Shown: positions 9,061 to 23,360, counted from the stretch's first letter. The stretch: DNA of 64,000 nucleotides from Candidatus Woesebacteria bacterium (GCA_963716475.1 OY970314.1:628790-692789), one strand, 5' to 3'. Notes: generated by a model from the sequence alone, not told the origin. Numbers and translations: made by a program.

Positions 9061-9095
9061 TAATCAGGAACGAAATTCTGAAGAACCAGGGTTAA
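9061..9095 (+). pseudogene. relic 3' end of a paralogue of gene 8045..8515 (..KEKDQKFLIRNEILKNQG*)
   Basis: 35-bp direct repeat of 8481..8515 (2 mismatches), in-frame C-terminal peptide preserved, stop upstream. Confidence 0.5.
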
Positions 9096-9493
9096 AACGG
9101 AATGTCTTTCTTTATTGTATCGTGATGGGTAAATTCATCACCAAAATGTCTGTAGTTACACCATTGGCAGTTTTCAGTCTCGGGAGGTGTTGGGCCGGCA
9201 AGAAGTATGTCAATTTTCTTTGCAAACTTTAAAAATCCGGTATCATCTACCGGAACCTCGAGCCAAATTGGAGGAAATGTTAAATTAGCATTGGCATTTT
9301 CAAAATTTACCTGGTCTGGATAAAAAATCAAAAGCCCGAGTCTTGTTATTTTAATGGAATCACCACTTGCCGGATTTTCTAAAGCATACTTATAAGCATT
9401 AAGCTGTGTGCCATATTTATCAATTTTTTCAACATTTGCCTGACTTATTTTAAGATCAACTAAAAGGTGTGAACCATCTCCAAGCTTAACCAA
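9092..9493 (-). pseudogene. PD-(D/E)xK (RecB/Cas4-like) nuclease C-terminal fragment
   Basis: TTG start only; 'GDGSHLLVDLK' (D..D-x-K), 'QLNAYKY' (QxxxY motif), 'CQWCNYRHF'; frame closed 16 codons upstream. Confidence 0.35.
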
Positions 9494-10035
9494 AAGGTAC
9501 CTATTTACCGCTTGTCGCAGAGAAGATAGTTGAATACCGTACTAAAGAAGAGCAGATTCCAAAAACAGCAGAAGACATACAAATTATTGAATCAATTTAT
9601 AACCATTACAAAACCAATCCTTTTGGGTTTGAAAAATGCGCAGCCGAAGTTGTTAAACTTATGGATAAAAATTTTATTTCTTACGACCTAACGAGACCGT
9701 GGTTGGACGGTGGAAGAGACGCGATCGGAAAATACTGCATAGGATCTGAGGAAAATGGAATCAATGTTGACTATGCTATTGAGGCAAAATGCTACAAACT
9801 ATCGGTTGCAGTCGGAGTTAGGGGTACATCCAGATTAATTTCAAGATTAAAATACCGTCAATTCGGGATATTTGTAACAACCTCGTTTGTGCACAAACAA
9901 GCGTATAAAGAAATTAAAGAGGACGGTCACCCGGTACTGATTATTTCATCCCAAGATATTGTCAATATCCTAAAAAGGAATGGGTTCTCTACATTAAATC
10001 AAGTAAGTGAATGGATAAATTCTTTTGAAAAATGA
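9490..10035 (+). pseudogene. Mrr-cat (type IV restriction endonuclease catalytic domain) 5'-truncated fragment
   Basis: open frame from 9490 without start codon; 'FEKCAAEVVKLM', 'DGGRD', 'EAKCY', 'FVTTSF' match Mrr_cat; first ATG (9661) lies inside the domain. Confidence 0.5.
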
Positions 10036-10047
10036 GAAATAGTAGTT

Positions 10048-11871
10048 TCATTTTCTCTTTAAAAAGCCGAACTCCGGCTGAGTTGGTGTACCGACTAAAA
10101 GTGCCCTATCTAAAAATTTATTAAACACTTCACAGCTTGTCTCAGGCAAAAGAGCACACGCGTAACAGGCTGACATATTTAGCGATTCAAAACCCTGACC
10201 GCTGCTCTCGATACATAATGGGTCGTTTGCGCACCACCCTGATGTCTCAGCCATAGATTCCAAGACAGAGGCAAACCTTTCAGGATTAGCTTGTCTTACA
10301 AGTCCGCCTAAAGTGCCATCGGCGTCACCTTCAGCTGTATAAATTAACACACCTTGCATTTTGTTCTCATCTCCAGAGGAATCACAATATATTCGTTCGC
10401 GCAATGAGGCACCAGAATATCCCGATTCGAAACTTAATTGCCTAATTAGTAAGTGGCTGAAAGTATGAAGTAAAACGTATTTTGCTGTAACGGGTTTAAA
10501 ATTTATCTTACGTCTCTTACAGGAAATTTCGTAATTTTTGTTCATCTGTTCAATTCTCTTGATTACAAATTTGTTTTCAGCCCACGATTTTATTTTCTTA
10601 GAATCCAATGCAATAAATATTCCTTCACCCCGAACTTCTACAGCCGGCTTCCAAGTTGCGGGGTGGTTTGGTCTGTCTGTTAATGAGACTAATTCGGAAA
10701 CGTCATGTTCCTCGCCTTCTATAAGTTCTGTATCAGTTTCTTGAGGTCTGAGTCTAGTAAATCCTACGAGAGCCCTTATTTCCCTTAAAGAGCGTACAAG
10801 GAAAATATTTTCGATGCCATAATGAGCATAATCCTCACTCGTTTTTGCCGACACGACGTCAAAATCATATTTATTACTAGATGATGTGTCAAATTTTCCA
10901 TGAAATGCCTGGTATTCATCAAAACGATAATCTTCCTCAGTTTGAGTACCGGAGGATTCTAATAATTCACTCATCTGATTAACACATTTTTTAACTTCAT
11001 CAAAACTTCGGCCAATCTGTTTTGCTATCTCCTCTAAAAATTTATTTTTTATTGTTTGGTCATTTTCTAAAATACCCTCTGCGGTTGTAAGGGCTCGCCA
11101 ATAATCGGTTTCTTGTATGCTTTCAAATAAAGTATCTGTATACGGTGGAATCGTTATTGAGCTTGCAATTCGCGGAAAATAAACGTTACTACCTCCACGT
11201 TGGACGGTAACAATTCTTTCTCCGCATTTCTCTGTATTATTTTCTTTAGACCACGGCATGGCACCCCTGCAGGTATCAGTGAAAATATCGGGGTCGAAGG
11301 CTCCTTGCATTGAACGCGGTTTCGCATCACACTGCATGCATCTTATTTTGGAACCAGAAAGCCCTGCGCCAGCAAGACTTGTGTCGTACTTCAGTGTCGG
11401 ATCCGGACTGCAACCTTCTCCGCGGTGTACCCACCAAACCCAAGGGAAATCGTCAAGGTGACCTTTTCTGCAAGCCACCAGAAAGCTCATCGGAACCAAT
11501 CCTTTTCTGCATATATTACAACGCGGTTGTGTAAGAAATTTTCGTGTATCGTTTATTGTCCATTTCTCGTAAGTTTTTAATAAACGGCACTTGGGACAAA
11601 AAAGCCACCGCGGAAACCTACGGTATGGGAGTCCCTTTGGAAATTCTTCAGATGAAGGAGGCTGACGAAAATATTTTACATTCAGTTGTTTCTGTAATCG
11701 CTCGTCCCGAAGGATGTCTTTATTTCCAGTATTAGGCCAGGAGTCAATCCCCATAGCTATAAAGGTGCCTTGTTCCAAATTGATAAGCGCGCCTGGACCA
11801 AAAGTGGTAATCATTTGTCCCCGCCTAATTTTTGGGCGGGAATCATTTTTATATTTAAAATAATTAATCAT
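10048..11871 (-). CDS. drmB: DUF1998-domain protein, DrmB-like (DISARM)
   Basis: 607 aa; Cys clusters 'FCPKCR','CNICRKG...ACRKGHLDDFPW'; C-terminal 'LLHTFSHLLIRQ...GDADGTLGG...CYACALLPETSC' DUF1998 signature; 8-nt overlap with upstream helicase. Confidence 0.7.
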   Translation of the reverse strand: MINYFKYKNDSRPKIRRGQMITTFGPGALINLEQGTFIAMGIDSWPNTGNKDILRDERLQKQLNVKYFRQPPSSEEFPKGLPYRRFPRWLFCPKCRLLKTYEKWTINDTRKFLTQPRCNICRKGLVPMSFLVACRKGHLDDFPWVWWVHRGEGCSPDPTLKYDTSLAGAGLSGSKIRCMQCDAKPRSMQGAFDPDIFTDTCRGAMPWSKENNTEKCGERIVTVQRGGSNVYFPRIASSITIPPYTDTLFESIQETDYWRALTTAEGILENDQTIKNKFLEEIAKQIGRSFDEVKKCVNQMSELLESSGTQTEEDYRFDEYQAFHGKFDTSSSNKYDFDVVSAKTSEDYAHYGIENIFLVRSLREIRALVGFTRLRPQETDTELIEGEEHDVSELVSLTDRPNHPATWKPAVEVRGEGIFIALDSKKIKSWAENKFVIKRIEQMNKNYEISCKRRKINFKPVTAKYVLLHTFSHLLIRQLSFESGYSGASLRERIYCDSSGDENKMQGVLIYTAEGDADGTLGGLVRQANPERFASVLESMAETSGWCANDPLCIESSGQGFESLNMSACYACALLPETSCEVFNKFLDRALLVGTPTQPEFGFLKRK

Positions 11872-14800
11872 CTTTTATATCAATATTACATTCGGCATCT
11901 ACGTTTCTCATGGAGGTTGGGAATACCCAAAGACCTTTACCAGAATCCCCGGCCCTTCGTGCTATTGGGTTTCCTGCTTTGTCGTTTTTATAAACAACTT
12001 TTCCTTCATTTTCCTTTATAAAATTTTCCCATTGACTGACCAACATCTCGAATTCCTCGAGTGTCGCATCAGCCTCTGTACTGTCTACATCCTTCACTCT
12101 TTGAATAATATAATTCCGTAATTCTGTTATTTTTGGTAATTCGGGCTTGAATAAGGCGGCACCACCTTCCTCTTCAAAATTTAAACCCAACCCGTGACGA
12201 AACATTGCCACAATAACCGCACTTAACGCACGTGCCCTAGCGGGGGCAGAGAAGGGGGTAACACTTGAAGGCTCAACACTTCTGTAGAATGTTTCGTGGT
12301 ATGTTCGAAAACGTTCGTAATGGGCACGGTCTCTAGTCCTTGCAGAATTGTAAAGGGTAATTACTAATCCGGGAAAACGTCTACCTATTCGGCTTGATAC
12401 CTGAATATACTCCGAGGTAAGTTTTGGCTGTCCGCGAATTACCATTAAATCAAGCCTATCTATATCAACACCCACGGACAACATGTTTGTGGCGGCAAGT
12501 ACGTCAATGGCGTTTCTATCAGGGAACGTTACGGATAACTGTTCGAGAATTTCAGGTATTTCTTCGGCACGCTTTCTACTTGTTAATTCTTTTGGTACAG
12601 CAATGTCACGCATAAAGCCACCATACCTCTGTTTTAATACATTCGCATATAAGGGGATATCGTCAGTCAAAAGGGATATAAACCCTCCTAGTTCACGGAT
12701 ACTGTTGAAGTAGTTTACGATTGTCCAATATTTATCTTTTACTTCATCATCTTCCTCAATTGTAAATACAGAATGTAGTAACTCAGCGGTGAGCCGAACG
12801 GCAGCCGTTGTTTGTGTTTTGCCCGAAGGCATAATTCCGAGATACAACCTTCCCAGTTTAATATTAAGCGGCACTTCCTTTGAAAAAAATGAATCGTTAA
12901 TATCAACTCCGGGGGATGGAAATTGCCTTGTCTCTCTATCAAAAAGATTCTTACACTGGTCTGCAGCGCGTCTTATTGTTGCAGTAGATGCTACAATTTT
13001 TGGCCGTACTCCTTTTCTTGAACAAAGAAAGTCAATCACAGTCTCATAAAGTCCAACCATAGTTCCCAATGCCCCTGAAATTAAGTGCAATTCGTCCTGA
13101 ATGATAAGTTCCGGGGGCAGGTTGGGATTATCGTTGTCGGATGCAAATACTCTTGATATACCTTTTTGTAGAGGCATTTGGGCAAACTTATCGACAGTCC
13201 CAAATAACAAAGTGGAGGGATCTCTGTAAATTTCTTCATCAACAATAAGTACTGGAAGTCTTTGATGAAAGGCACAAGTCTTTTCAAGACAAAAAAGATT
13301 GGCTTGTTTAGATTTACTTTTATATCCGCATACTCTATTTCCGTTCGCTTGCTCTATAACTGTTTTAGTTCCACACCAGGGGCACGAAAGTATAGGCGAT
13401 GGATTTTTGTCAGTTTCACCAAAAATAAATTCCTGAAAACCTTTCTCTGCCATCTCCAAACTATTAGGAGTTGAATCTATTCCGACCCAAAGTCCGACTG
13501 ATATCTCCTCGCTTCCCAACTTTCCATTACTGTCTTGTCTGATTTTTTCCATAGCACATATTAGAGTGCATGCTCTCTGAAATTGTTGCGCGGTGAGCAA
13601 ACGCAATGTATATCTCATTATTACGGCTGTACCTCCGGATTCGTTTGGATATTTAAGTCGTCGATAAAAAATTGTGAATGATGAAAGACCAAGATACGCC
13701 TCAGTTTTACCTCCACCCGTGGGAAACCAAATTAAATCAACGATCTCTCTATCCTTGGATTTGTGTTCGGTAATGCCTTTTAATGAAAGCAGGAGGAATG
13801 CTAATTGAAAAGGTCTCCAGCTACGTCTTCCAGTCTTCTCAGATAGATAATCTGGCCATTCTATAGTGCCTTCTCCGGGAGATCTCTTTTGCTTTTGGAG
13901 TTCTGAATGGAGCGATTGCATCAACATGGCCTTATTGGCCAATTGGAAGGATTCCATCACAAGATTGTCAGCGTCAAGCAACCGAACCCCTTCAATCATT
14001 CTAGAGCAAGATTCCTCACACAGCGCAATGTGTTTGTCGACAGTATTAGAGAAATTAGTCGGCAAATTGGTGTTTTCTCTAAGACTGCTTATCCATTGTT
14101 TGTATAAATTACAAAAGATATTAAGTTTGTCTATTATTTCCCCCTTCTTAAGGGTTCCGGTTCCCGAAAGCTCCCTCATGCTAAGTATTAAAGGGTCCAA
14201 ACCCGGTACATCAAAATCGGTTTTTGGAACTTCGAATGCTGGAATAGTCTCTGTATAAACGGAGGATGAATTAATAGCGCCCTCATCACGTGTCCAATTT
14301 GCAGAGCACCCATGTCCGACTGCATAGGTTTTTCTATTTCTATACAAAAGAGCTAAAGACAGTTCTTCCTCATCGTGTTTAAACAATGGAACTGAGGAGT
14401 ACTCTGCAAATATTTCCTTTTGATCACTCGCTGAAGTGACAATCATCGAAACATTAAAAAATACATGTTCCTCGTCCATTCCAACGTGGCCGACCTGATT
14501 TGTATTTTTAAGGGCAAGTGTGAAAAGGGTTAAATTACCCTTATCATCATGTCTTCTTTCACACACCAGTTCTAGGCCCTCCGTTACTCTTTGAGATTTA
14601 AAATCAGCTTTAATAGTTAGATCCGCCGTATCTCCAAGACTTTGCCACTCACCCTGGGATTGCCTGACCGCTTTATAGAGTTGGGGAATAAAATCCTTTT
14701 CATTAGATTTTTCAGATATTTGTTTAGGTATCCCGTAATCGACAACCCCGCGAGTAGACAACTTTCCTTCAGTGAACTCAAAATTTTCTTTAAATTCTTC

Positions 14801-15232
14801 CAAGTCTGCAATGGATTCCGGGATTTTATCAACCTCAACATAATGCTCCCCTGTTTCTAATTTTTGATAAGTCGTCCAGTTAACTTTAACTTTTAAGTTA
14901 GGGCTATTTCCCAAACAGTAAAAGCTTATTCCCATTACGCTGGGAAAGAATGAATTAGCAGATCCCTTATCCGAATCTATAATTTCGCCACCCCCTGTTG
15001 TATCAGCATTATCCTGCTCGTTTACATCACTTTCTTCCGCGATATCTCTACGAGATTCGTAAAGATTTGGGAAAATCATCCCAGCGGAGTACCTGGTGAC
15101 GGGATTTTCCGTAATTCTTTCTTTTCCACTTGCCGGGCCGATAAACTCTGAAAAAACACCATCAACGATACGTGAACGTTCGGTTGCGTAACGATTTTCT
15201 TTTTCATCCATATTCATTGTTTCATTTAACAA
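11864..15232 (-). CDS. drmA: DEAD/DEAH-box SF2 helicase with ~480-aa N-terminal domain, DrmA-like (DISARM)
   Basis: 1122 aa; motif I 'FPTGGGKTEAY', motif II 'IIQDELHLI', motif III 'STATI', motif VI 'QVSSRIGRR'; immediately upstream of DUF1998 gene. Confidence 0.7.
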   Translation of the reverse strand: MLNETMNMDEKENRYATERSRIVDGVFSEFIGPASGKERITENPVTRYSAGMIFPNLYESRRDIAEESDVNEQDNADTTGGGEIIDSDKGSANSFFPSVMGISFYCLGNSPNLKVKVNWTTYQKLETGEHYVEVDKIPESIADLEEFKENFEFTEGKLSTRGVVDYGIPKQISEKSNEKDFIPQLYKAVRQSQGEWQSLGDTADLTIKADFKSQRVTEGLELVCERRHDDKGNLTLFTLALKNTNQVGHVGMDEEHVFFNVSMIVTSASDQKEIFAEYSSVPLFKHDEEELSLALLYRNRKTYAVGHGCSANWTRDEGAINSSSVYTETIPAFEVPKTDFDVPGLDPLILSMRELSGTGTLKKGEIIDKLNIFCNLYKQWISSLRENTNLPTNFSNTVDKHIALCEESCSRMIEGVRLLDADNLVMESFQLANKAMLMQSLHSELQKQKRSPGEGTIEWPDYLSEKTGRRSWRPFQLAFLLLSLKGITEHKSKDREIVDLIWFPTGGGKTEAYLGLSSFTIFYRRLKYPNESGGTAVIMRYTLRLLTAQQFQRACTLICAMEKIRQDSNGKLGSEEISVGLWVGIDSTPNSLEMAEKGFQEFIFGETDKNPSPILSCPWCGTKTVIEQANGNRVCGYKSKSKQANLFCLEKTCAFHQRLPVLIVDEEIYRDPSTLLFGTVDKFAQMPLQKGISRVFASDNDNPNLPPELIIQDELHLISGALGTMVGLYETVIDFLCSRKGVRPKIVASTATIRRAADQCKNLFDRETRQFPSPGVDINDSFFSKEVPLNIKLGRLYLGIMPSGKTQTTAAVRLTAELLHSVFTIEEDDEVKDKYWTIVNYFNSIRELGGFISLLTDDIPLYANVLKQRYGGFMRDIAVPKELTSRKRAEEIPEILEQLSVTFPDRNAIDVLAATNMLSVGVDIDRLDLMVIRGQPKLTSEYIQVSSRIGRRFPGLVITLYNSARTRDRAHYERFRTYHETFYRSVEPSSVTPFSAPARARALSAVIVAMFRHGLGLNFEEEGGAALFKPELPKITELRNYIIQRVKDVDSTEADATLEEFEMLVSQWENFIKENEGKVVYKNDKAGNPIARRAGDSGKGLWVFPTSMRNVDAECNIDIKDD

Positions 15233-16955
15233 AACTGTTGAGTCTATTCTGATACTCAGTTTTTAATTTTTTATCCATAAAAACATATAACTTGTCCTTA
15301 GCCCTCGTCATCGCAACATAATTCGCAGATTCAGAAAACCTTCCAGAAAAAGAATCAACGTCGATATACACAATAATATTATTTTCGAGCCCTTTGAACA
15401 TTTGTGCTGAGGCATACAAAACTTTATCTTTCGGCGGGTTCGAAATGTTTTCCTCATTTGCCTCAGTTACAAAGCGTGGAACCTTCACCCCTGATGTGTA
15501 CAGTGACATTGAACCAGTATTCCTGCTAGTAAGTAAGGTTATAGAAGACGGGGGTACTTCTTCCACGGTAACCAATTTGTTTATTAACTCAACAACCTTC
15601 AGTGCCATATCTTCATCTCCGTTGCATAGATTAAATTCAACTTTGGGGCCCTCAACTCTTGGTTTGCCTGCTGGGAAACCTGAAACAATCGAGGCTTGGG
15701 TCGCTATCTGCAAAGTGTTTCTGACATTTAGGTCAAGTCTATATTCTGGCGCTCCTATACTTTTTAGATAAGTGTAAGATTCGCTACTAAAGCGGTTAAA
15801 AAGTCTTGCTTGTCCGCCGGGATCTAAGAAAATAGCCCAGTTTCCTTCTTTTAGACCATGTTTTAATACGGAGTCTAGAGCAAGTAGGTAATTTTCACTC
15901 AAAAGGTCCTGTGCTTCGTCAATAATCAACCAATCAAATTTTTCCTGGACTGTTTTCTCAGCAGCGTTCATGAATACTGATGGCAGTATTTCGTTATAAA
16001 TCTCATCGGAGGTCTTTCCCAAACTTCTTTTGTCTAGTTCCTTTTCGAACCCAGCTTTTTTAATAACCCCCAAAAAATATCTGTTTATAGAGTTGACCTG
16101 CAGATATGAACTGTCGAGATCGACCGACGAAATCTCATTTCGCAAACAAACCCCTAACAGTTTGTTAAAACATAAGAGAAGGGTTTTTTGCTTGTTAAAA
16201 AATAATCTTCTTGTCTTCTCGACAGCTAATAATGTTTTGCCGGTTCCAGCAGCCCCTGTGAACAATGTTCTTGGGTTTCCCTCCATCTGATCTAATGCCC
16301 TATATTGTTCCTTAGTAAAACTGATTATTTGGTCTTCAGCCCTTACGATATCGCTCCATAAGCGTGTACCTGATTCAAAATCACCTCTTAAATAATCAAC
16401 AATATTAGATTTGGGGATCGGTATCTGCCTTGAAGCCAGATGCGTTTTCCTTTTCCAATAATCAGATAGTCTTTCAACATACTTACTTATAGGACTCGAT
16501 AAGCCATGTACATCGTAGACTATTTCCTTATCCCATTCAGGAGATTCTTCATTAAACTCTATATCTGGAAAAAGAACCCCGTATCCAAAAATGTACCCAT
16601 GATTTTGCCCAAATTTCGATTCTAGGTCACTTTTTAGTGAATACATACCCGAAGAAGCTTGTGCAAAAGGACCTTCCACCTTTTTGTTTTCCTGTCCATA
16701 GCGGTCTTCAAAAATCCATATACCGTCTTTACGGGAAACCCGGCCACCCTTAACTTCCAGGGAAAGTATTAATCCTTTCCCAATCAGAACAAAATCGATT
16801 TCTCCCTGCCTTTTTTGTAGATGTCTGGATAGACCTAAAGAATGTAGACATGTAAATTCTGTAAGATCATCCAGATTATTTAACAATGTAAAAATTTTCC
16901 TCTCGGCATTACTTTTAACATCGGGGTTGATGTAGGACGGAATCATTTTTGCCAT
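15222..16955 (-). CDS. NERD-domain nuclease fused to UvrD/PcrA-like SF1 helicase
   Basis: 577 aa; N-term 'GEIDFVLIGKGLILSLEVKGG' (NERD); 'FTGAAGTGKTLLAV' (Walker A), 'LIIDEAQDLL', C-term 'YVAMTRAKDKLYV' (motif VI). Confidence 0.7.
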   Translation of the reverse strand: MAKMIPSYINPDVKSNAERKIFTLLNNLDDLTEFTCLHSLGLSRHLQKRQGEIDFVLIGKGLILSLEVKGGRVSRKDGIWIFEDRYGQENKKVEGPFAQASSGMYSLKSDLESKFGQNHGYIFGYGVLFPDIEFNEESPEWDKEIVYDVHGLSSPISKYVERLSDYWKRKTHLASRQIPIPKSNIVDYLRGDFESGTRLWSDIVRAEDQIISFTKEQYRALDQMEGNPRTLFTGAAGTGKTLLAVEKTRRLFFNKQKTLLLCFNKLLGVCLRNEISSVDLDSSYLQVNSINRYFLGVIKKAGFEKELDKRSLGKTSDEIYNEILPSVFMNAAEKTVQEKFDWLIIDEAQDLLSENYLLALDSVLKHGLKEGNWAIFLDPGGQARLFNRFSSESYTYLKSIGAPEYRLDLNVRNTLQIATQASIVSGFPAGKPRVEGPKVEFNLCNGDEDMALKVVELINKLVTVEEVPPSSITLLTSRNTGSMSLYTSGVKVPRFVTEANEENISNPPKDKVLYASAQMFKGLENNIIVYIDVDSFSGRFSESANYVAMTRAKDKLYVFMDKKLKTEYQNRLNSFVK

Positions 16956-19609: not shown

Positions 19610-20770
19610 TTACTCTTTCAAATGAAGATTTATAAATTTATTAACAGATTTTGCTACACCAACAGCGGCTTTGTACGGAACGCCGTTCCCAATTGCCTTG
19701 AACATTTCTGACAAAGTCATCGTATCCGGCAGGACAAATTGTCTGGGTAATGACTGCAGGGAAAGAGCCTCAGCCACTGACAGTCTCCGGGCTTCATAGG
19801 GATGAAGGTGAACCTCGTTATTACCATATGCAACGGTGGGAGAATATTTCCAGCGGTGCAATCTTTTAAATGATTTTTTCGAAACGTCGCCTTCCTTTGT
19901 ATCCCTAAAACGAAGAAGCGCTTGCCGGGGTTTAAAATAATGTTTGGAATTTGGATGAGTTAGTACCCGGTTTTTATTAAACCAGTACTCTACGGTAGTA
20001 TCCTCCGGAATACTTTTCGGTCTTTTTTTCATCGACCCATCATAAAGGTGCTCAACTTTTTTGTATTTACTAAATATTTCCTCCCGTGGGTACTTAACAA
20101 AGTCATTCCAGGGAAATGCCTTCGAATTAAGAAGATGTCCGTCTTTCGGGTCGAGGATTTTATTAGGTATCAGTTTATTATCAAATCCGATAAGAATAAT
20201 CCTGTCCCTGTCTTGTGGTACACCATATTCAATGGCATTAATAAGCCTCTCGGTTATAACATATCCTTCTTTTTGCAATTTTTTCTTTAATTCTTCATAA
20301 AAAAGTCTGTGACTTTTGGTTCTCCACATACCCTTTACGTTCTCAAACAAAAAGAAGTCCGGTTTCTGCTGGCTAATTAAAGTGGTGTATATTGCCGAGA
20401 GTTTTCCATGTTTTCCACATCGGCCTTTATTTTTACCCGCTACGGAAAAATCAGGGCAAGGGGGTCCACCAATAAATCCGACGAGTGAACCTTTTTCCCT
20501 GGCATCCTTAACAAAACCTGATAGTCTTTTCTTCCACAACCCTTTTGTAAGCTCCTTCATGTCCCCTTCGTGGTACCCGTATCTGGGAGCGGGAAGCTTC
20601 ATTTTGACGCGGGCAGTTTTATACGCACCAAGAAAAGAAGAGTTCAGCTCGTTAACAAAAGCTATATCGAAACCGCTGCTTTCAAAACCTAAATCTAAAA
20701 AACCTACACCGGCGAAAAAGGAGAATATTAAATTTTTACTTTTTTCCCCAGAGGCTAAAACTTGTATCAT
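19610..20770 (-). CDS. dcm: DNA (cytosine-5)-methyltransferase (DrmMII-like)
   Basis: motif I 'FFAGVGFLDLGF', motif IV 'GGPPCPDFS', motif VI 'FLFENVKGM', motif X 'AIGNGVPYKAA'. Confidence 0.85.
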   Translation of the reverse strand: MIQVLASGEKSKNLIFSFFAGVGFLDLGFESSGFDIAFVNELNSSFLGAYKTARVKMKLPAPRYGYHEGDMKELTKGLWKKRLSGFVKDAREKGSLVGFIGGPPCPDFSVAGKNKGRCGKHGKLSAIYTTLISQQKPDFFLFENVKGMWRTKSHRLFYEELKKKLQKEGYVITERLINAIEYGVPQDRDRIILIGFDNKLIPNKILDPKDGHLLNSKAFPWNDFVKYPREEIFSKYKKVEHLYDGSMKKRPKSIPEDTTVEYWFNKNRVLTHPNSKHYFKPRQALLRFRDTKEGDVSKKSFKRLHRWKYSPTVAYGNNEVHLHPYEARRLSVAEALSLQSLPRQFVLPDTMTLSEMFKAIGNGVPYKAAVGVAKSVNKFINLHLKE

Positions 20771-20843: not shown

Positions 20844-21248
20844 TTACCCTTGACTTATCAGAAGCCTAAATAACCTGTTAATTGCTCTATCTGGGTTTCG
20901 AACTATGTCATTGCCCCAAAAATTAATAATATGCCAGCCCTCTTTACGAAGCGTTCTTTGAACCAGCCTGTCTCGTTTAATATTATTTCCGATTTTTTTA
21001 ATCCAATATTCAGGGGTGGCATTCTTCTTGGTTAAATAATTTTTACCATGCCAAAATTCTCCGTTGATAAATACGGCGACTTTATATTCAGGAAAGGCTA
21101 TGTCAGGTTTCCCTATAACTGGATAATGTTTCTTAAACTTGCAGCCGATTTTTTCCAGCAATTGAAACATTAGCTTCTCAGGTTTTGTATTTTCTGACCT
21201 AATCCGCGACATGTTATAACTTCTTTGTTCCTTAGTTTTTATATCCAT
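20844..21248 (-). CDS. vsr: very-short-patch-repair endonuclease Vsr
   Basis: 'YNMSRIRSENTKPE...GKPDIAFPEYKVAVFINGEFWHG' canonical Vsr; directly upstream of dcm. Confidence 0.8.
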   Translation of the reverse strand: MDIKTKEQRSYNMSRIRSENTKPEKLMFQLLEKIGCKFKKHYPVIGKPDIAFPEYKVAVFINGEFWHGKNYLTKKNATPEYWIKKIGNNIKRDRLVQRTLRKEGWHIINFWGNDIVRNPDRAINRLFRLLISQG

Positions 21249-21292: not shown

Positions 21293-21712
21293 CTAGTCAA
21301 CCGTTCCCTGCTGTTTTTGAGTCTCGTAATGGCATTTTTCGCCGTTACTTAACCCTACAATCGTCAGCTGTACGAAAAACTGTTTCCAAGTCTTTCCGTT
21401 TGCGAGGAGCACGATCTCACCATTTACCGTCTTAACGCCTTCCCACCTGTCATCGTATTTTTTTACTACCACCGTGTTATCGGGACCGTACTTATTTTTA
21501 TAGACCAAGCTTCTCTCATTTACTCCTTTCTTGTACGTTTCCGTGTCCGGTTCGTAAAGAGCAGTCGCAGACATGTGAACACCTTTAACTGCAAAAAAGT
21601 TTGCAAAAAGGATATTCAGCGGAAAATCGGATAGCTCGGGCCTTCCATCCACTTCAAGTTTATTCGGAATAAAACCGAATCTTTGGAGCGGGTTTGCATT
21701 TGTTTCTATCAT
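21293..21712 (-). CDS. hypothetical protein
   Basis: 139 aa ORF. Confidence 0.4.
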   Translation of the reverse strand: MIETNANPLQRFGFIPNKLEVDGRPELSDFPLNILFANFFAVKGVHMSATALYEPDTETYKKGVNERSLVYKNKYGPDNTVVVKKYDDRWEGVKTVNGEIVLLANGKTWKQFFVQLTIVGLSNGEKCHYETQKQQGTVD

Positions 21713-21732: not shown

Positions 21733-21761
21733 ACAAAAAAACCTCTCCGAAAGAGAGGTCA
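21733..21761 (-). terminator. rho-independent terminator (minus strand: gaCCTCTCtttcgGAGAGGttttttt)
   Basis: 6-bp GC-rich stem, 5-nt loop, T7 run on minus strand; downstream of 21911..22249. Confidence 0.4.
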
Positions 21762-22298: not shown

Positions 22299-23360
22299 CT
22301 AGTTGTAAAACCAGTCCCAGCCGGGGTTTTCGACAACCTTAATATTGGAACTTTGAAGTTTCAGATTGTTCCCCACTATCCAATAACCTTCGAAATATTT
22401 ATTCATAGTTGTCCCTTCCACCCAGTCTAATGATTGCAGTTTGATATTAATTTTATTTTCGTTTTTCGCGTCGGGTGAGGCTGATATTAGGTAAACCTGG
22501 AGAGTTGTGGCATAACCCTGAATCCACGAATCGAAAGTCTGGGTTTGGCGCATCGGGTCCATCTGGTCATAAGCTTTTCTTAGATCGCGGGCACCGATAT
22601 AAGTATAGAAGGCGTTAACAACCCCGAGAGGGTTTGTGGTGTCGATCTTAATTTTTGCAACTTGCTCATCGGAAAGTCCCAGTATTGAATTTTGAACGGA
22701 AGCGATATCAATAAATTCGGAAAGCCCCGCAACACCCATTGTGTTTACACCTATTACCTCCCCGCATGCATTAACAAGAGGACCTCCGCTCATTCCGGAA
22801 ATTACCGTGGCATCGGTTTTGATATATGAACCCTTGAAAGTATTATCATAAATTGTTCCGGTGTAGGAACCTTTATTGATGATTACTCCCCCTTTAAGTT
22901 CCGATCCAAATGCGTAACCCACAGCATAAACCGGCTCGCCAAAAACCGGATTGGGGGCACTTCCCAATGTTCCAAAATAACCGTAAAAAGGAAGCGGGGT
23001 AAGCTTACGATTTATTTTCAAAACGGCCATATCCTTGGTTTTGTCACCTCGGATGCTTACGGGAGTTTCGATACTACCGTCCGGGAAAACAACTTTAGGG
23101 GTCGCGTCGCCGTCAATTACGTGGAAGTTGGTGAAAATTTCATTTTCCGAAACAGGAAACCCTGACCCTTCTCCCAAACTTCCTTCTATGCGTACTACCT
23201 TCTCGTTCATAGTTTTTTGAATTTCGGCCTGCGAACATTTCAAAAGTTTGGTTCCACCGAAACGTTTTTCCACATTGGAAAGCCGGATGTTGAGATAACC
23301 GATATAGGCGAGAACAGCGGCAATGAGGATAAACTTCAGGAGCTTCATTATGCGTTTCAC
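22299..23360 (-). CDS. secreted trypsin-like (S1) serine protease with C-terminal extra domain
   Basis: N-terminal TM/signal; 'TNFHVIDG' (His), 'DMAVLKI' (Asp), 'GMSGGPLV' (Ser) catalytic triad context. Confidence 0.65.
   Translation of the reverse strand: MKRIMKLLKFILIAAVLAYIGYLNIRLSNVEKRFGGTKLLKCSQAEIQKTMNEKVVRIEGSLGEGSGFPVSENEIFTNFHVIDGDATPKVVFPDGSIETPVSIRGDKTKDMAVLKINRKLTPLPFYGYFGTLGSAPNPVFGEPVYAVGYAFGSELKGGVIINKGSYTGTIYDNTFKGSYIKTDATVISGMSGGPLVNACGEVIGVNTMGVAGLSEFIDIASVQNSILGLSDEQVAKIKIDTTNPLGVVNAFYTYIGARDLRKAYDQMDPMRQTQTFDSWIQGYATTLQVYLISASPDAKNENKINIKLQSLDWVEGTTMNKYFEGYWIVGNNLKLQSSNIKVVENPGWDWFYN

Follow-up and report, generated by a model that had tools for sequence, protein, structure and literature searches.

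A stretch of 64,000 nucleotides from Candidatus Woesebacteria bacterium (GCA_963716475.1 OY970314.1:628790-692789), below called the window, carries a gene whose product joins a NERD nuclease domain to a superfamily 1 (SF1) helicase and which lies within an operon resembling class 2 DISARM. On balance we favour the view that this NERD-helicase is an integral fifth subunit of a distinct class 2 DISARM subtype with the order DrmMII(+Vsr) - DrmE - NERD-helicase - DrmA - DrmB, in which a single chain with a NERD nuclease and an SF1 motor supplies the nuclease where DrmC, the phospholipase D (PLD) family protein of other DISARM systems, is absent. With an effector role inferred from its sequence, the NERD-helicase is a promising candidate for the component of DISARM that cuts DNA.

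The NERD-helicase open reading frame (ORF) occupies positions 15222 to 16955 of the window and encodes 577 amino acids, starting with ATG and ending with a TGA codon at 15222-15224. A preliminary description of the window had placed the gene at these coordinates, which were correct, but its strand had to be changed to minus: the plus-strand translation of the same interval is riddled with stop codons, and that reading was rejected. A word-indexed protein search returned 4635 homologues at E <= 1e-3, and a representative library contained 1242 clusters (50 % identity) at E <= 1e-30, so the ORF is a genuine gene rather than a chance reading frame. NCBI gives the orthologues the generic name 'nuclease-related domain-containing DEAD/DEAH box helicase', and among PADLOC models the window protein fits RTasNERD-Hel best (E = 1.1e-52, residues 1-565 aligned to model positions 1-516 of 519). 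A search of the phage database yielded a single distant match and no sign that phages carry the gene.

The operon lies on the minus strand, and its co-oriented, tightly packed genes encode in order Vsr, a Dcm-type methylase (DrmMII), a DrmE-family protein, the NERD-helicase, DrmA and DrmB (Table 1). Its DISARM-like nature, proposed in the preliminary description, was borne out: DrmA, DrmB and the DrmE-family protein pass their NCBIfam cut-offs, and a C5 methyltransferase gene abuts drmE. The DrmE equivalog model NF038323 is not reached by the 883-aa protein (54 bits vs cut-off 250). Vsr is the usual companion of a Dcm-type methylase, and a vsr gene was found near the module in nine related loci. 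The junctions of the NERD-helicase gene differ slightly from those first described. Directly upstream, drmE is separated from it by a 2-nt spacer (TAA-ta-ATG) and does not overlap it by 2 nt, as had been claimed; downstream, the reported 11-nt overlap with drmA requires drmA to begin with the TTG at 15232, and is lost if the alternative in-frame ATG 4 nt past the helicase stop codon is used. The genes drmA and drmB overlap by 8 nt. Of the features tested for class 2 DISARM, adjacent DrmA and DrmB genes, a C5 methyltransferase and a DrmE-family protein are all found; by its sequence the operon thus appears to lack DrmC alone and to have one extra conserved gene. No reverse transcriptase (RT) partner was found in the operon or the scanned neighbours with Pfam and PADLOC. 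An RT partner, suggested by the RTasNERD-Hel match, was rejected as the flanking genes encode DrmE and DrmA and no RT domain occurs in the operon. The base composition of the window gave no island signal.

The genomic context of homologues was studied with hidden Markov models (HMMs) built for DrmA, DrmB, DrmE and NERD-helicase and applied to all fetched loci. A copy was called linked when DrmA or DrmB lay within 3 kb, and unlinked when the two flanks, each of 2.5 kb or more, held no DrmA or DrmB (DrmAB). The census is a context sample, collected from genomes and metagenomes through short alignment-derived patterns with a ceiling of 600 candidate stretches and consisting mostly of distant relatives, so that it is biased and its counts are lower bounds. 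It comprised 67 distinct loci with a high-scoring copy, at least 30 of them linked, 10 unlinked and 27 too short to judge; DrmAB linkage was thus seen in 30 of 40 informative loci. The linked loci span the Candidate Phyla Radiation (CPR), Melainabacteria, Actinomycetota, Bacillota, Deinococcota and Pseudomonadota, and include the complete plasmids of Deinococcus gobiensis, Rhodococcus opacus, Burkholderia aenigmatica, Azospirillum ramasamyi and Rhizobium ruizarguesonis.

The window-type order DrmE - NERD-helicase - DrmA - DrmB was present in 10 loci, and in 12 further loci NERD-helicase - DrmA - DrmB was preceded by other genes. Seven loci had the order DrmA - DrmB - NERD-helicase; those inspected carried a UvrD-type helicase before drmA, and some of the seven had no methylase nearby. 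In one locus the gene lay between two DrmAB modules. It precedes drmA in 22 of the 30 linked loci and is always immediately next to DrmA or DrmB, either overlapping or separated by 0-30 nt. Each of the five separate contigs inspected for homologues of 39-86 % identity had DrmE - NERD-helicase - DrmA - DrmB together with a C5 methylase; they derive from a WWE3/CPR bacterium, a metagenome-assembled genome (MAG) of Melainabacteria, a MAG deposited as Verrucomicrobiae, a contig on which a nearby WhiB-family gene suggests an actinobacterium, and an unassigned metagenome. Even at 27-34 % identity, relatives from plasmids and MAGs still adjoin DrmA and DrmB. Taken together, the gene neighbourhoods indicate that the DISARM context of the NERD-helicase is not accidental.

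DrmC belongs to the originally defined drmABC core triplet, and it was searched for specifically. No PLD or DrmC gene was detected in the window operon or its neighbours with Pfam and PADLOC, nor was a PLD/HKD protein found beside any of the 30 linked modules by Pfam lists, record annotation, motif scans and Pfam searches of three candidate ORFs. A regular expression for the HKD motif, run on all ORFs of the window and of the linked loci, matched twice in the window, both times away from the operon, in a class II tRNA synthetase and in an ORF without a family match. The HKD-motif ORFs were rejected as DrmC, being a tRNA synthetase, ORFs without family matches or chance matches inside other genes. 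In seven linked loci the NERD-helicase gene directly follows drmB and so occupies the DrmC slot, as seen by comparison with the Planktothrix class 1 operon (drmD...drmA-drmB-drmC). The comparative data therefore favour the earlier proposal that the protein stands in for DrmC. The role of DrmC itself is only presumed, because DrmC was dispensable in the DISARM systems tested so far (PMC9142583; 10.1101/2021.12.28.474362); it does not co-purify with DrmAB and is often missing (PMC9142583).

The NERD-helicase has also diverged together with its neighbours. Over 13 loci, its pairwise identities correlated with those of DrmA at r = 0.93, a value reached in none of 5000 Mantel permutations, and with those of DrmB at r = 0.94, while the correlation between DrmA and DrmB was 0.96.

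Both parts of the protein were recognised in the domain search proposed in the preliminary description. The N-terminal NERD domain, announced there by the signature GEIDFVLIGKG...ILSLEVKGG (aa 51-71), is confirmed by Pfam model PF08378 on aa 16-117 (E = 8e-8, 33.2 bits against a gathering score of 22.1). Conservation was assessed in an alignment of 95 full-length homologues with 35-86 % identity, in which the residues E18, H38, E52, D54, E67, K69 and Q99 are invariant. Among these, E18, D54, E67-x-K69 and Q99 form the canonical E...D...ExK...Q set of PD-(D/E)xK nucleases, which disposes of the concern, raised beforehand, that the NERD region might lack its catalytic residues. These five residues, as well as the helicase catalytic residues, are kept in every DrmAB-linked copy. 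The following segment, aa 118-209, holds near-invariant 'FGYGVxFPDI...SPEW' and 'LRGDFE' motifs in the alignments. A separate model of aa 1-205 (predicted local distance difference test score, pLDDT, 84) shows an order of helices and strands compatible with a restriction-endonuclease fold, and its top Foldseek matches were the PD-(D/E)xK nucleases Bax1, McrC, Can2, Hjc and R2 endonuclease. As all of these matches were weak (E >= 4e-3), the nuclease domain has no close solved relative. In three unlinked relatives (L021, L022 and L026) E18, D54, E67 and K69 have been lost and all helicase motifs are retained.

The C-terminal two thirds of the protein match Pfam ResIII (30.3 bits vs cut-off 22.5), with sub-threshold matches to PhoH, SLFN-g3_helicase (23.4 vs threshold 24), UvrD_C_2 (20.2 vs 27.4) and AAA_19. 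The preliminary description had called this part a UvrD-like SF1 helicase on the basis of the motifs GAAGTGKT (aa 234-241), IIDEAQD (aa 344-350) and VAMTRAK (aa 547-553). The motifs and the assignment to SF1 hold: Walker A, motif II and motifs IV, V and VI with the arginine finger are all intact, and G234/G239/K240, D346-E347-x-Q349-D350, N410-x-R412-N413, K521-G522-x-E524 and Y546...R551 are invariant in the 95 homologues. An AlphaFold2 (AF2) model of the whole protein, built on the same alignment, was confident (mean pLDDT 87.7) and contained two RecA-like domains of SF1 topology, with a Foldseek probability of 1.00 for SLFN11, Upf1, UvrD, PcrA, Rep, RecD2 and Dna2. The closest solved folds were human SLFN11 and SLFN14 (E = 2e-17 to 1e-13), next Upf1, Sen1 and IGHMBP2, and then UvrD, PcrA, Rep, AdnAB, Dna2 and RecD2. 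The likeness to these neighbours is confined to the generic SF1 core (about 14 % identity, template modelling (TM) score about 0.45), and a profile search of the sequences of solved structures gave only partial matches, to SLFN11, UvrD1, PcrA, GajB and Upf1.

The term UvrD-like did not survive this comparison. No match to PF00580 was obtained, UvrD_C_2 stayed below its threshold, the 1B/2B accessory domains were not found, and the helicase part measures about 370 aa against about 650-720 aa in UvrD and PcrA; UvrD also ranks behind SLFN11 and Upf1 among the structural neighbours. Because of these neighbours and the partial sequence matches to solved structures, the predicted motor is best assigned to a compact SF1 core, outside the UvrD family in the Pfam sense and nearer to cores of the Schlafen-group-III/Upf1 type. 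Apart from these small corrections, to the strand, the 2-nt gap and the term UvrD-like, the observation first made on this gene is confirmed, and its interpretation is supported as far as sequence goes.

Several considerations weigh against a dedicated DISARM subunit. Ten of the 40 informative loci have no DrmAB, and the protein family can thus work outside DISARM. The co-divergence could come from transfer of the cassette as one unit, and a neighbour-joining (NJ) tree does not group the linked copies into a single clade, so that the association with DrmAB would be either ancient with losses or acquired more than once. Sampling in the census was biased, as described above. The closest solved helicase folds are those of RNA-acting enzymes, and one NERD domain, that of ZwsA, has been reported as an RNA endonuclease (10.64898/2026.04.06.716636). 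Finally, the class 2-type operon of L. plantarum pMK02 (L092, 3183-12264) consists of Dcm, an 801-aa DrmE-like protein, DrmA and DrmB, and has neither DrmC nor NERD-helicase; there are therefore DISARM cores in which no nuclease is encoded, and a built-in nuclease is not obligatory.

The unlinked copies provide some indication of what the family does elsewhere. The surroundings of the five unlinked loci that were scanned are heterogeneous, with DUF3800, a methylase and a DEAD-box helicase, peptidases or a phosphatase-type toxin; no RT occurred among the ten neighbours scanned in them, and the copies in L013 and L017 are apparently alone. A related NERD-helicase, 'cluster 485', to which the PADLOC model RTasNERD-Hel corresponds, accompanies UG34 reverse transcriptases in 7 of 17 cases (Mestre et al. 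2022, PMC9226505). As the unlinked loci are heterogeneous and a related cluster accompanies UG34, the NERD-helicase is, to judge from gene neighbourhoods, a modular component recruited by several defence systems.

In the subtype proposed here, DrmMII would methylate host cytosines, as inferred from class 2 DISARM. DrmAB is an SF2 (superfamily 2) helicase complex held inactive by a trigger loop, and in class 1 it is activated by unmethylated DNA with a 5' single-stranded overhang (PMC9142583). By extension from class 1, DrmAB of the subtype would load on unmethylated invader DNA with single-stranded 5' ends and become activated. The NERD-helicase would then be recruited to DrmAB, or act beside it, and would move along the DNA driven by ATP while its nuclease domain degrades it. 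The system would thereby gain a DNA-degrading step of its own, comparable to that of Dna2 or AddAB, as the domain content and the conserved catalytic residues suggest. The route to DNA degradation in DISARM 'has remained a mystery' (PMC9142583; 10.1101/2021.12.28.474362), and a subtype with its own nuclease on its own SF1 motor is for this reason the most economical reading. A bolder version, which we regard as doubtful, is that DrmA, DrmB and NERD-helicase form a physically coupled three-protein machine defining a new DISARM class. In it, one PD-(D/E)xK nuclease would be driven along unmethylated invader DNA by an SF2 and an SF1 motor, whose polarities may be opposite as in RecBCD, and a variable upstream partner (DrmE, a UvrD-like helicase or others) would set the target specificity; the NERD-helicase would supply the missing DNA-degrading activity and, unlike DrmC, would be essential.

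Other explanations of the gene's position were also considered. DISARM, BREX and type I restriction-modification operons often harbour nested defence genes (10.1101/2024.01.29.577857), and the NERD-helicase could be such an embedded single-gene module, sensing and degrading invader nucleic acid alone and sharing only its regulation with DISARM. Its occurrence in loci without DrmAB, in some of them apparently alone, and the company of its relatives with UG34 RTs would fit, but we consider this unlikely: the linkage spans several phyla and persists as identity falls from 86 % to about 27 %, the gene in every case lies right beside DrmA or DrmB and diverges with them as closely as they do with each other, and PDC models of embedded candidates matched at most weakly. 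The lack of DrmC in every linked locus also suggests complementarity and not random insertion. It is also conceivable, though rather unlikely, that the NERD-helicase is a member of the system acting upstream of DrmAB as a sensor or loader, which resects or nicks invader DNA ends and so creates the single-stranded 5' tails needed to open the trigger loop of DrmA, or senses ends like GajB. Binding and activation of DrmAB require a 5' single-stranded overhang of at least 7 nt (PMC9142583), the window protein has weak partial matches to GajB models, and Dna2, a structural match here, belongs to the nuclease-SF1 helicases known from textbooks as end-resection machines. The position of the gene before drmA in most linked loci would agree with an early step, but gene order is an unreliable guide to order of action, and in seven loci the gene follows drmB. 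The present data do not separate a sensor or loader from an effector.

The resemblance of the helicase to SLFN11, SLFN14, Upf1, Sen1 and IGHMBP2 and the report on ZwsA raise the question of an abortive effector, similar to Schlafens or toxins, that targets RNA and cuts that of the phage or the host after DrmAB has detected infection; ARMADA type II likewise pairs a YprA helicase with a RelE-RNase-UvrD fusion (10.1101/2025.09.15.676423). Such an effector seems improbable, as the resemblance covers the generic SF1 core only, the Schlafen nuclease domain has a different fold, and the system is methylation-based with a DrmAB that binds DNA (PMC9142583). That SF1 helicases and PD-(D/E)xK nucleases are common in DNA repair allows for a housekeeping nuclease-helicase placed beside DISARM by chance. 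This is very unlikely, close to negligible: linkage to DrmAB recurs in 30 loci, plasmids included, the neighbours of linked modules are integrases, transposases, Vsr/Dcm and other defence genes, and the distribution is patchy with several pseudogenised copies. PD-(D/E)xK enzymes, moreover, are overwhelmingly DNases according to textbook knowledge, which speaks against an RNA effector. The place of the NERD-helicase as a nuclease-bearing subunit of a DISARM subtype remains the reading we prefer.

Compared with class 2 DISARM, defined as drmE-drmA-drmB-drmC-drmMII (Ofir et al. 2018 as summarised in 10.1101/2021.12.28.474362, PMC9142583), the window operon shares the co-oriented, tightly packed genes for DrmA, DrmB, a DrmE-family protein and a C5 methylase. 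It differs in lacking the PLD nuclease DrmC, in the NERD-SF1 helicase added between drmE and drmA, and in a DrmE that matches the broad family model and not the equivalog. In layout the nearest analogue is ARMADA type II, in which ArmD, a RelE-like RNase fused to a GajB-like UvrD helicase, is encoded beside the YprA-family ArmC (10.1101/2025.09.15.676423). Both systems combine a YprA-family SF2 helicase, an SF1 helicase with an N-terminal nuclease and a methyltransferase, whereas in the window the nuclease is of the NERD/PD-(D/E)xK type instead of RelE and is joined to a smaller SF1 core, the YprA helicase falls in the DISARM clade and is split into DrmA and DrmB, and the methylase is a C5 Dcm instead of PglX-like. 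TALON also brings a NERD-type nuclease together with a YprA-family helicase; it consists of a YprA homologue, a NERD endonuclease, TPR-CSD and TBP, and is rare and largely found in Chloroflexota (10.1101/2025.09.15.676423). Its YprA helicase is, however, ARMADA-like, its NERD protein has not been described as fused to an SF1 helicase, and its partner genes differ from those of the window.

At the level of the protein, cluster 485 of the putative UG34 systems belongs to the same two-domain family, with an N-terminal NERD and a C-terminal helicase and a full-length HMM match, but its partner is an RT, while that of the window protein is DrmAB/DrmE with no RT in the operon. Schlafen group III proteins, with which bacterial DUF2075-type helicases were grouped in this comparison, are antiviral and likewise join an N-terminal nuclease to a C-terminal SF1 helicase, SLFN11 and SLFN14 being the best solved neighbours. 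As their nuclease fold is unrelated, the identity is about 14 % and the SLFN-g3_helicase score falls just below threshold, the resemblance is one of analogy and a shared minimal SF1 core, not orthology. Gabija GajA/GajB, Nhi, Dna2 and AddAB/RecB similarly couple an SF1 motor to a nuclease on DNA ends or replication intermediates, and Dna2 also has its PD-(D/E)xK nuclease N-terminal to the helicase. The window protein matches GajB and Nhi over stretches of 35-60 residues only (E 3e-10 to 3e-6), which falls short of full-length membership, and in contrast to the Dna2/AddAB group it has no iron-sulphur cluster domain, no 1B/2B domains and a shorter helicase.

Table 1 Genes of the DISARM-like operon in the window and conserved elements of the NERD-helicase
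Feature	Position	Strand	Basis or remark
Vsr very-short-patch repair endonuclease	20844..21248	-	Pfam Vsr 1e-24
C5 cytosine methyltransferase (DrmMII role)	19610..20770	-	Pfam DNA_methylase PF00145 9e-50; PADLOC MTase_II, DrmMII models
DrmE-family protein, 883 aa	16958..19609	-	NF038316 265 bits (cut-off 80); Pfam DrmE_C
NERD-SF1 helicase gene	15222..16955	-	ORF list; Pfam NERD, ResIII; PADLOC RTasNERD-Hel; AF2 model
NERD / PD-(D/E)xK nuclease domain, aa 16-117	16605..16910	-	Pfam PF08378; alignment; Foldseek
E18 codon	16902-16904	-	
D54 codon	within 16791-16802	-	
E67-V-K69	16749-16757	-	
Q99 codon	16659-16661	-	
Conserved end of nuclease domain and helical linker, aa 118-209	16329..16604	-	Alignments; model secondary structure
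Compact SF1 helicase core, aa 210-577	15225..16328	-	Motifs; Foldseek; solved-structure sequence search
Walker A GAAGTGKT	16233-16256	-	Invariant
Motif II IDEAQD	15906-15923	-	Invariant
NVRNT	15714-15728	-	Invariant
KGLE	15384-15395	-	Invariant
Motif VI YVAMTRA	15300-15320	-	Invariant
DrmA, SF2 YprA-family helicase, 1122 aa from TTG start	11864..15232	-	NF038325 981 bits (cut-off 950); PADLOC DrmA 6e-233
DrmB, DUF1998/MZB protein, 607 aa	10048..11871	-	NF038324 497 bits (cut-off 240); PADLOC DrmB 5e-90

Both ends of the operon in the window have further features. Upstream, vsr is preceded by a 139-aa ORF (21293-21712), and just upstream of that ORF a terminator-like hairpin with 9 pairs and a T-run (21740-21760, minus strand) may mark the start of the transcription unit; the promoter and terminator scan was otherwise uninformative. 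About 1 kb upstream of the cluster lies a gene for a membrane-anchored trypsin-like protease (22299-23360, minus strand). It is 33 % identical to a Trypsin_2 gene directly after drmB in L001 (12038-13324), a position also taken by a Trypsin_2 gene in L002 (15493-16779), and it matches the protease domains of PADLOC RT-Protease_XI and LmuA. It may be an accessory gene of the CPR lineage, or mere shared synteny. At the other end, a 124-aa ORF on the plus strand (9661-10035) converges on the end of drmB and resembles Mrr-type methyl-directed restriction enzymes (PADLOC 8e-53, Pfam Mrr_cat). It covers only the C-terminal third (model 268-388 of 393) with no N-terminal part upstream, and looks like the remnant of a truncated type IV restriction gene. 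Just beyond drmB, a 133-aa ORF (9092-9493, minus strand) contains a CxxC motif, matches PDDEXK_1/Cas4-like nucleases in their C-terminal portion and is apparently another nuclease fragment.

Variants of the module were observed among the homologue loci. A second operon type, consisting of a UvrD-type helicase (about 590-930 aa), DrmA, DrmB and NERD-helicase, occurs in L012, L024, L030, L032, L037, L045 and L048, the last of which lacks the operon start. On the Azospirillum and Rhizobium plasmids the annotated region contains no methyltransferase, and this type may be a methylase-less system based on DrmAB. In L045 (18-15904) tandem DrmA-DrmB modules flank the NERD-helicase gene, with a TerB-UvrD helicase before them and a short SF1 helicase without NERD after them. 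In L011 (7595-10004), L016 (7525-10013) and L028 (6585-9013) no DrmE is recognisable, and two ORFs of conserved length (about 310 and about 500 aa) stand before the NERD-helicase. The pair could be a split or alternative DrmE-like partner; when the L011 pair and the 507-aa L028 ORF were tested as split DrmE, no Pfam or NCBIfam match was obtained. An MzaE-like AIPR protein (NCBIfam 1e-90) is encoded upstream of the module in L011 (5457-7592), and a DarT-family single-stranded DNA ADP-ribosyltransferase directly after the NERD-helicase in L030 (14804-15406). Several copies look decayed: the NERD-helicase is split into three ORFs in L016 (10001-11741), all genes are fragmented in L039, an IS3 element interrupts DrmAB in L029, and DrmE or DrmA is split into two ORFs in L002 (5918-8535) and L008.

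In the literature on DISARM, on the YprA-family census and on embedded defence genes we found no NERD-helicase described as a DISARM component, although the supplement of the original DISARM paper may mention one. As far as we have found, a predicted DISARM subtype with a PD-(D/E)xK nuclease-SF1 helicase in place of DrmC has not been described before. Since no DISARM model in PADLOC v2.0.0 or NCBIfam release 20.0 labels the NERD-helicase, operons of this kind are likely to be listed in annotations as incomplete or generic DISARM. Experiments are feasible because orthologues occur in the cultivable Bacillota Virgibacillus, Desulforamulus and Alkaliphilus, with 42-44 % identity in Virgibacillus doumboii and Desulforamulus hydrothermalis, and on plasmids of Rhodococcus (pROB02 of R. 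opacus), Deinococcus, Rhizobium and Azospirillum.

DISARM is widespread, yet the way in which it destroys phage DNA is unexplained, and its only candidate nuclease, DrmC, is dispensable and often absent (PMC9142583). A DrmAB subtype that always comes with an intact nuclease-helicase and never with DrmC offers a concrete and testable candidate for the degradation step. It suggests that DISARM, like ARMADA type II and Gabija, may depend on a nuclease coupled to an SF1 motor.

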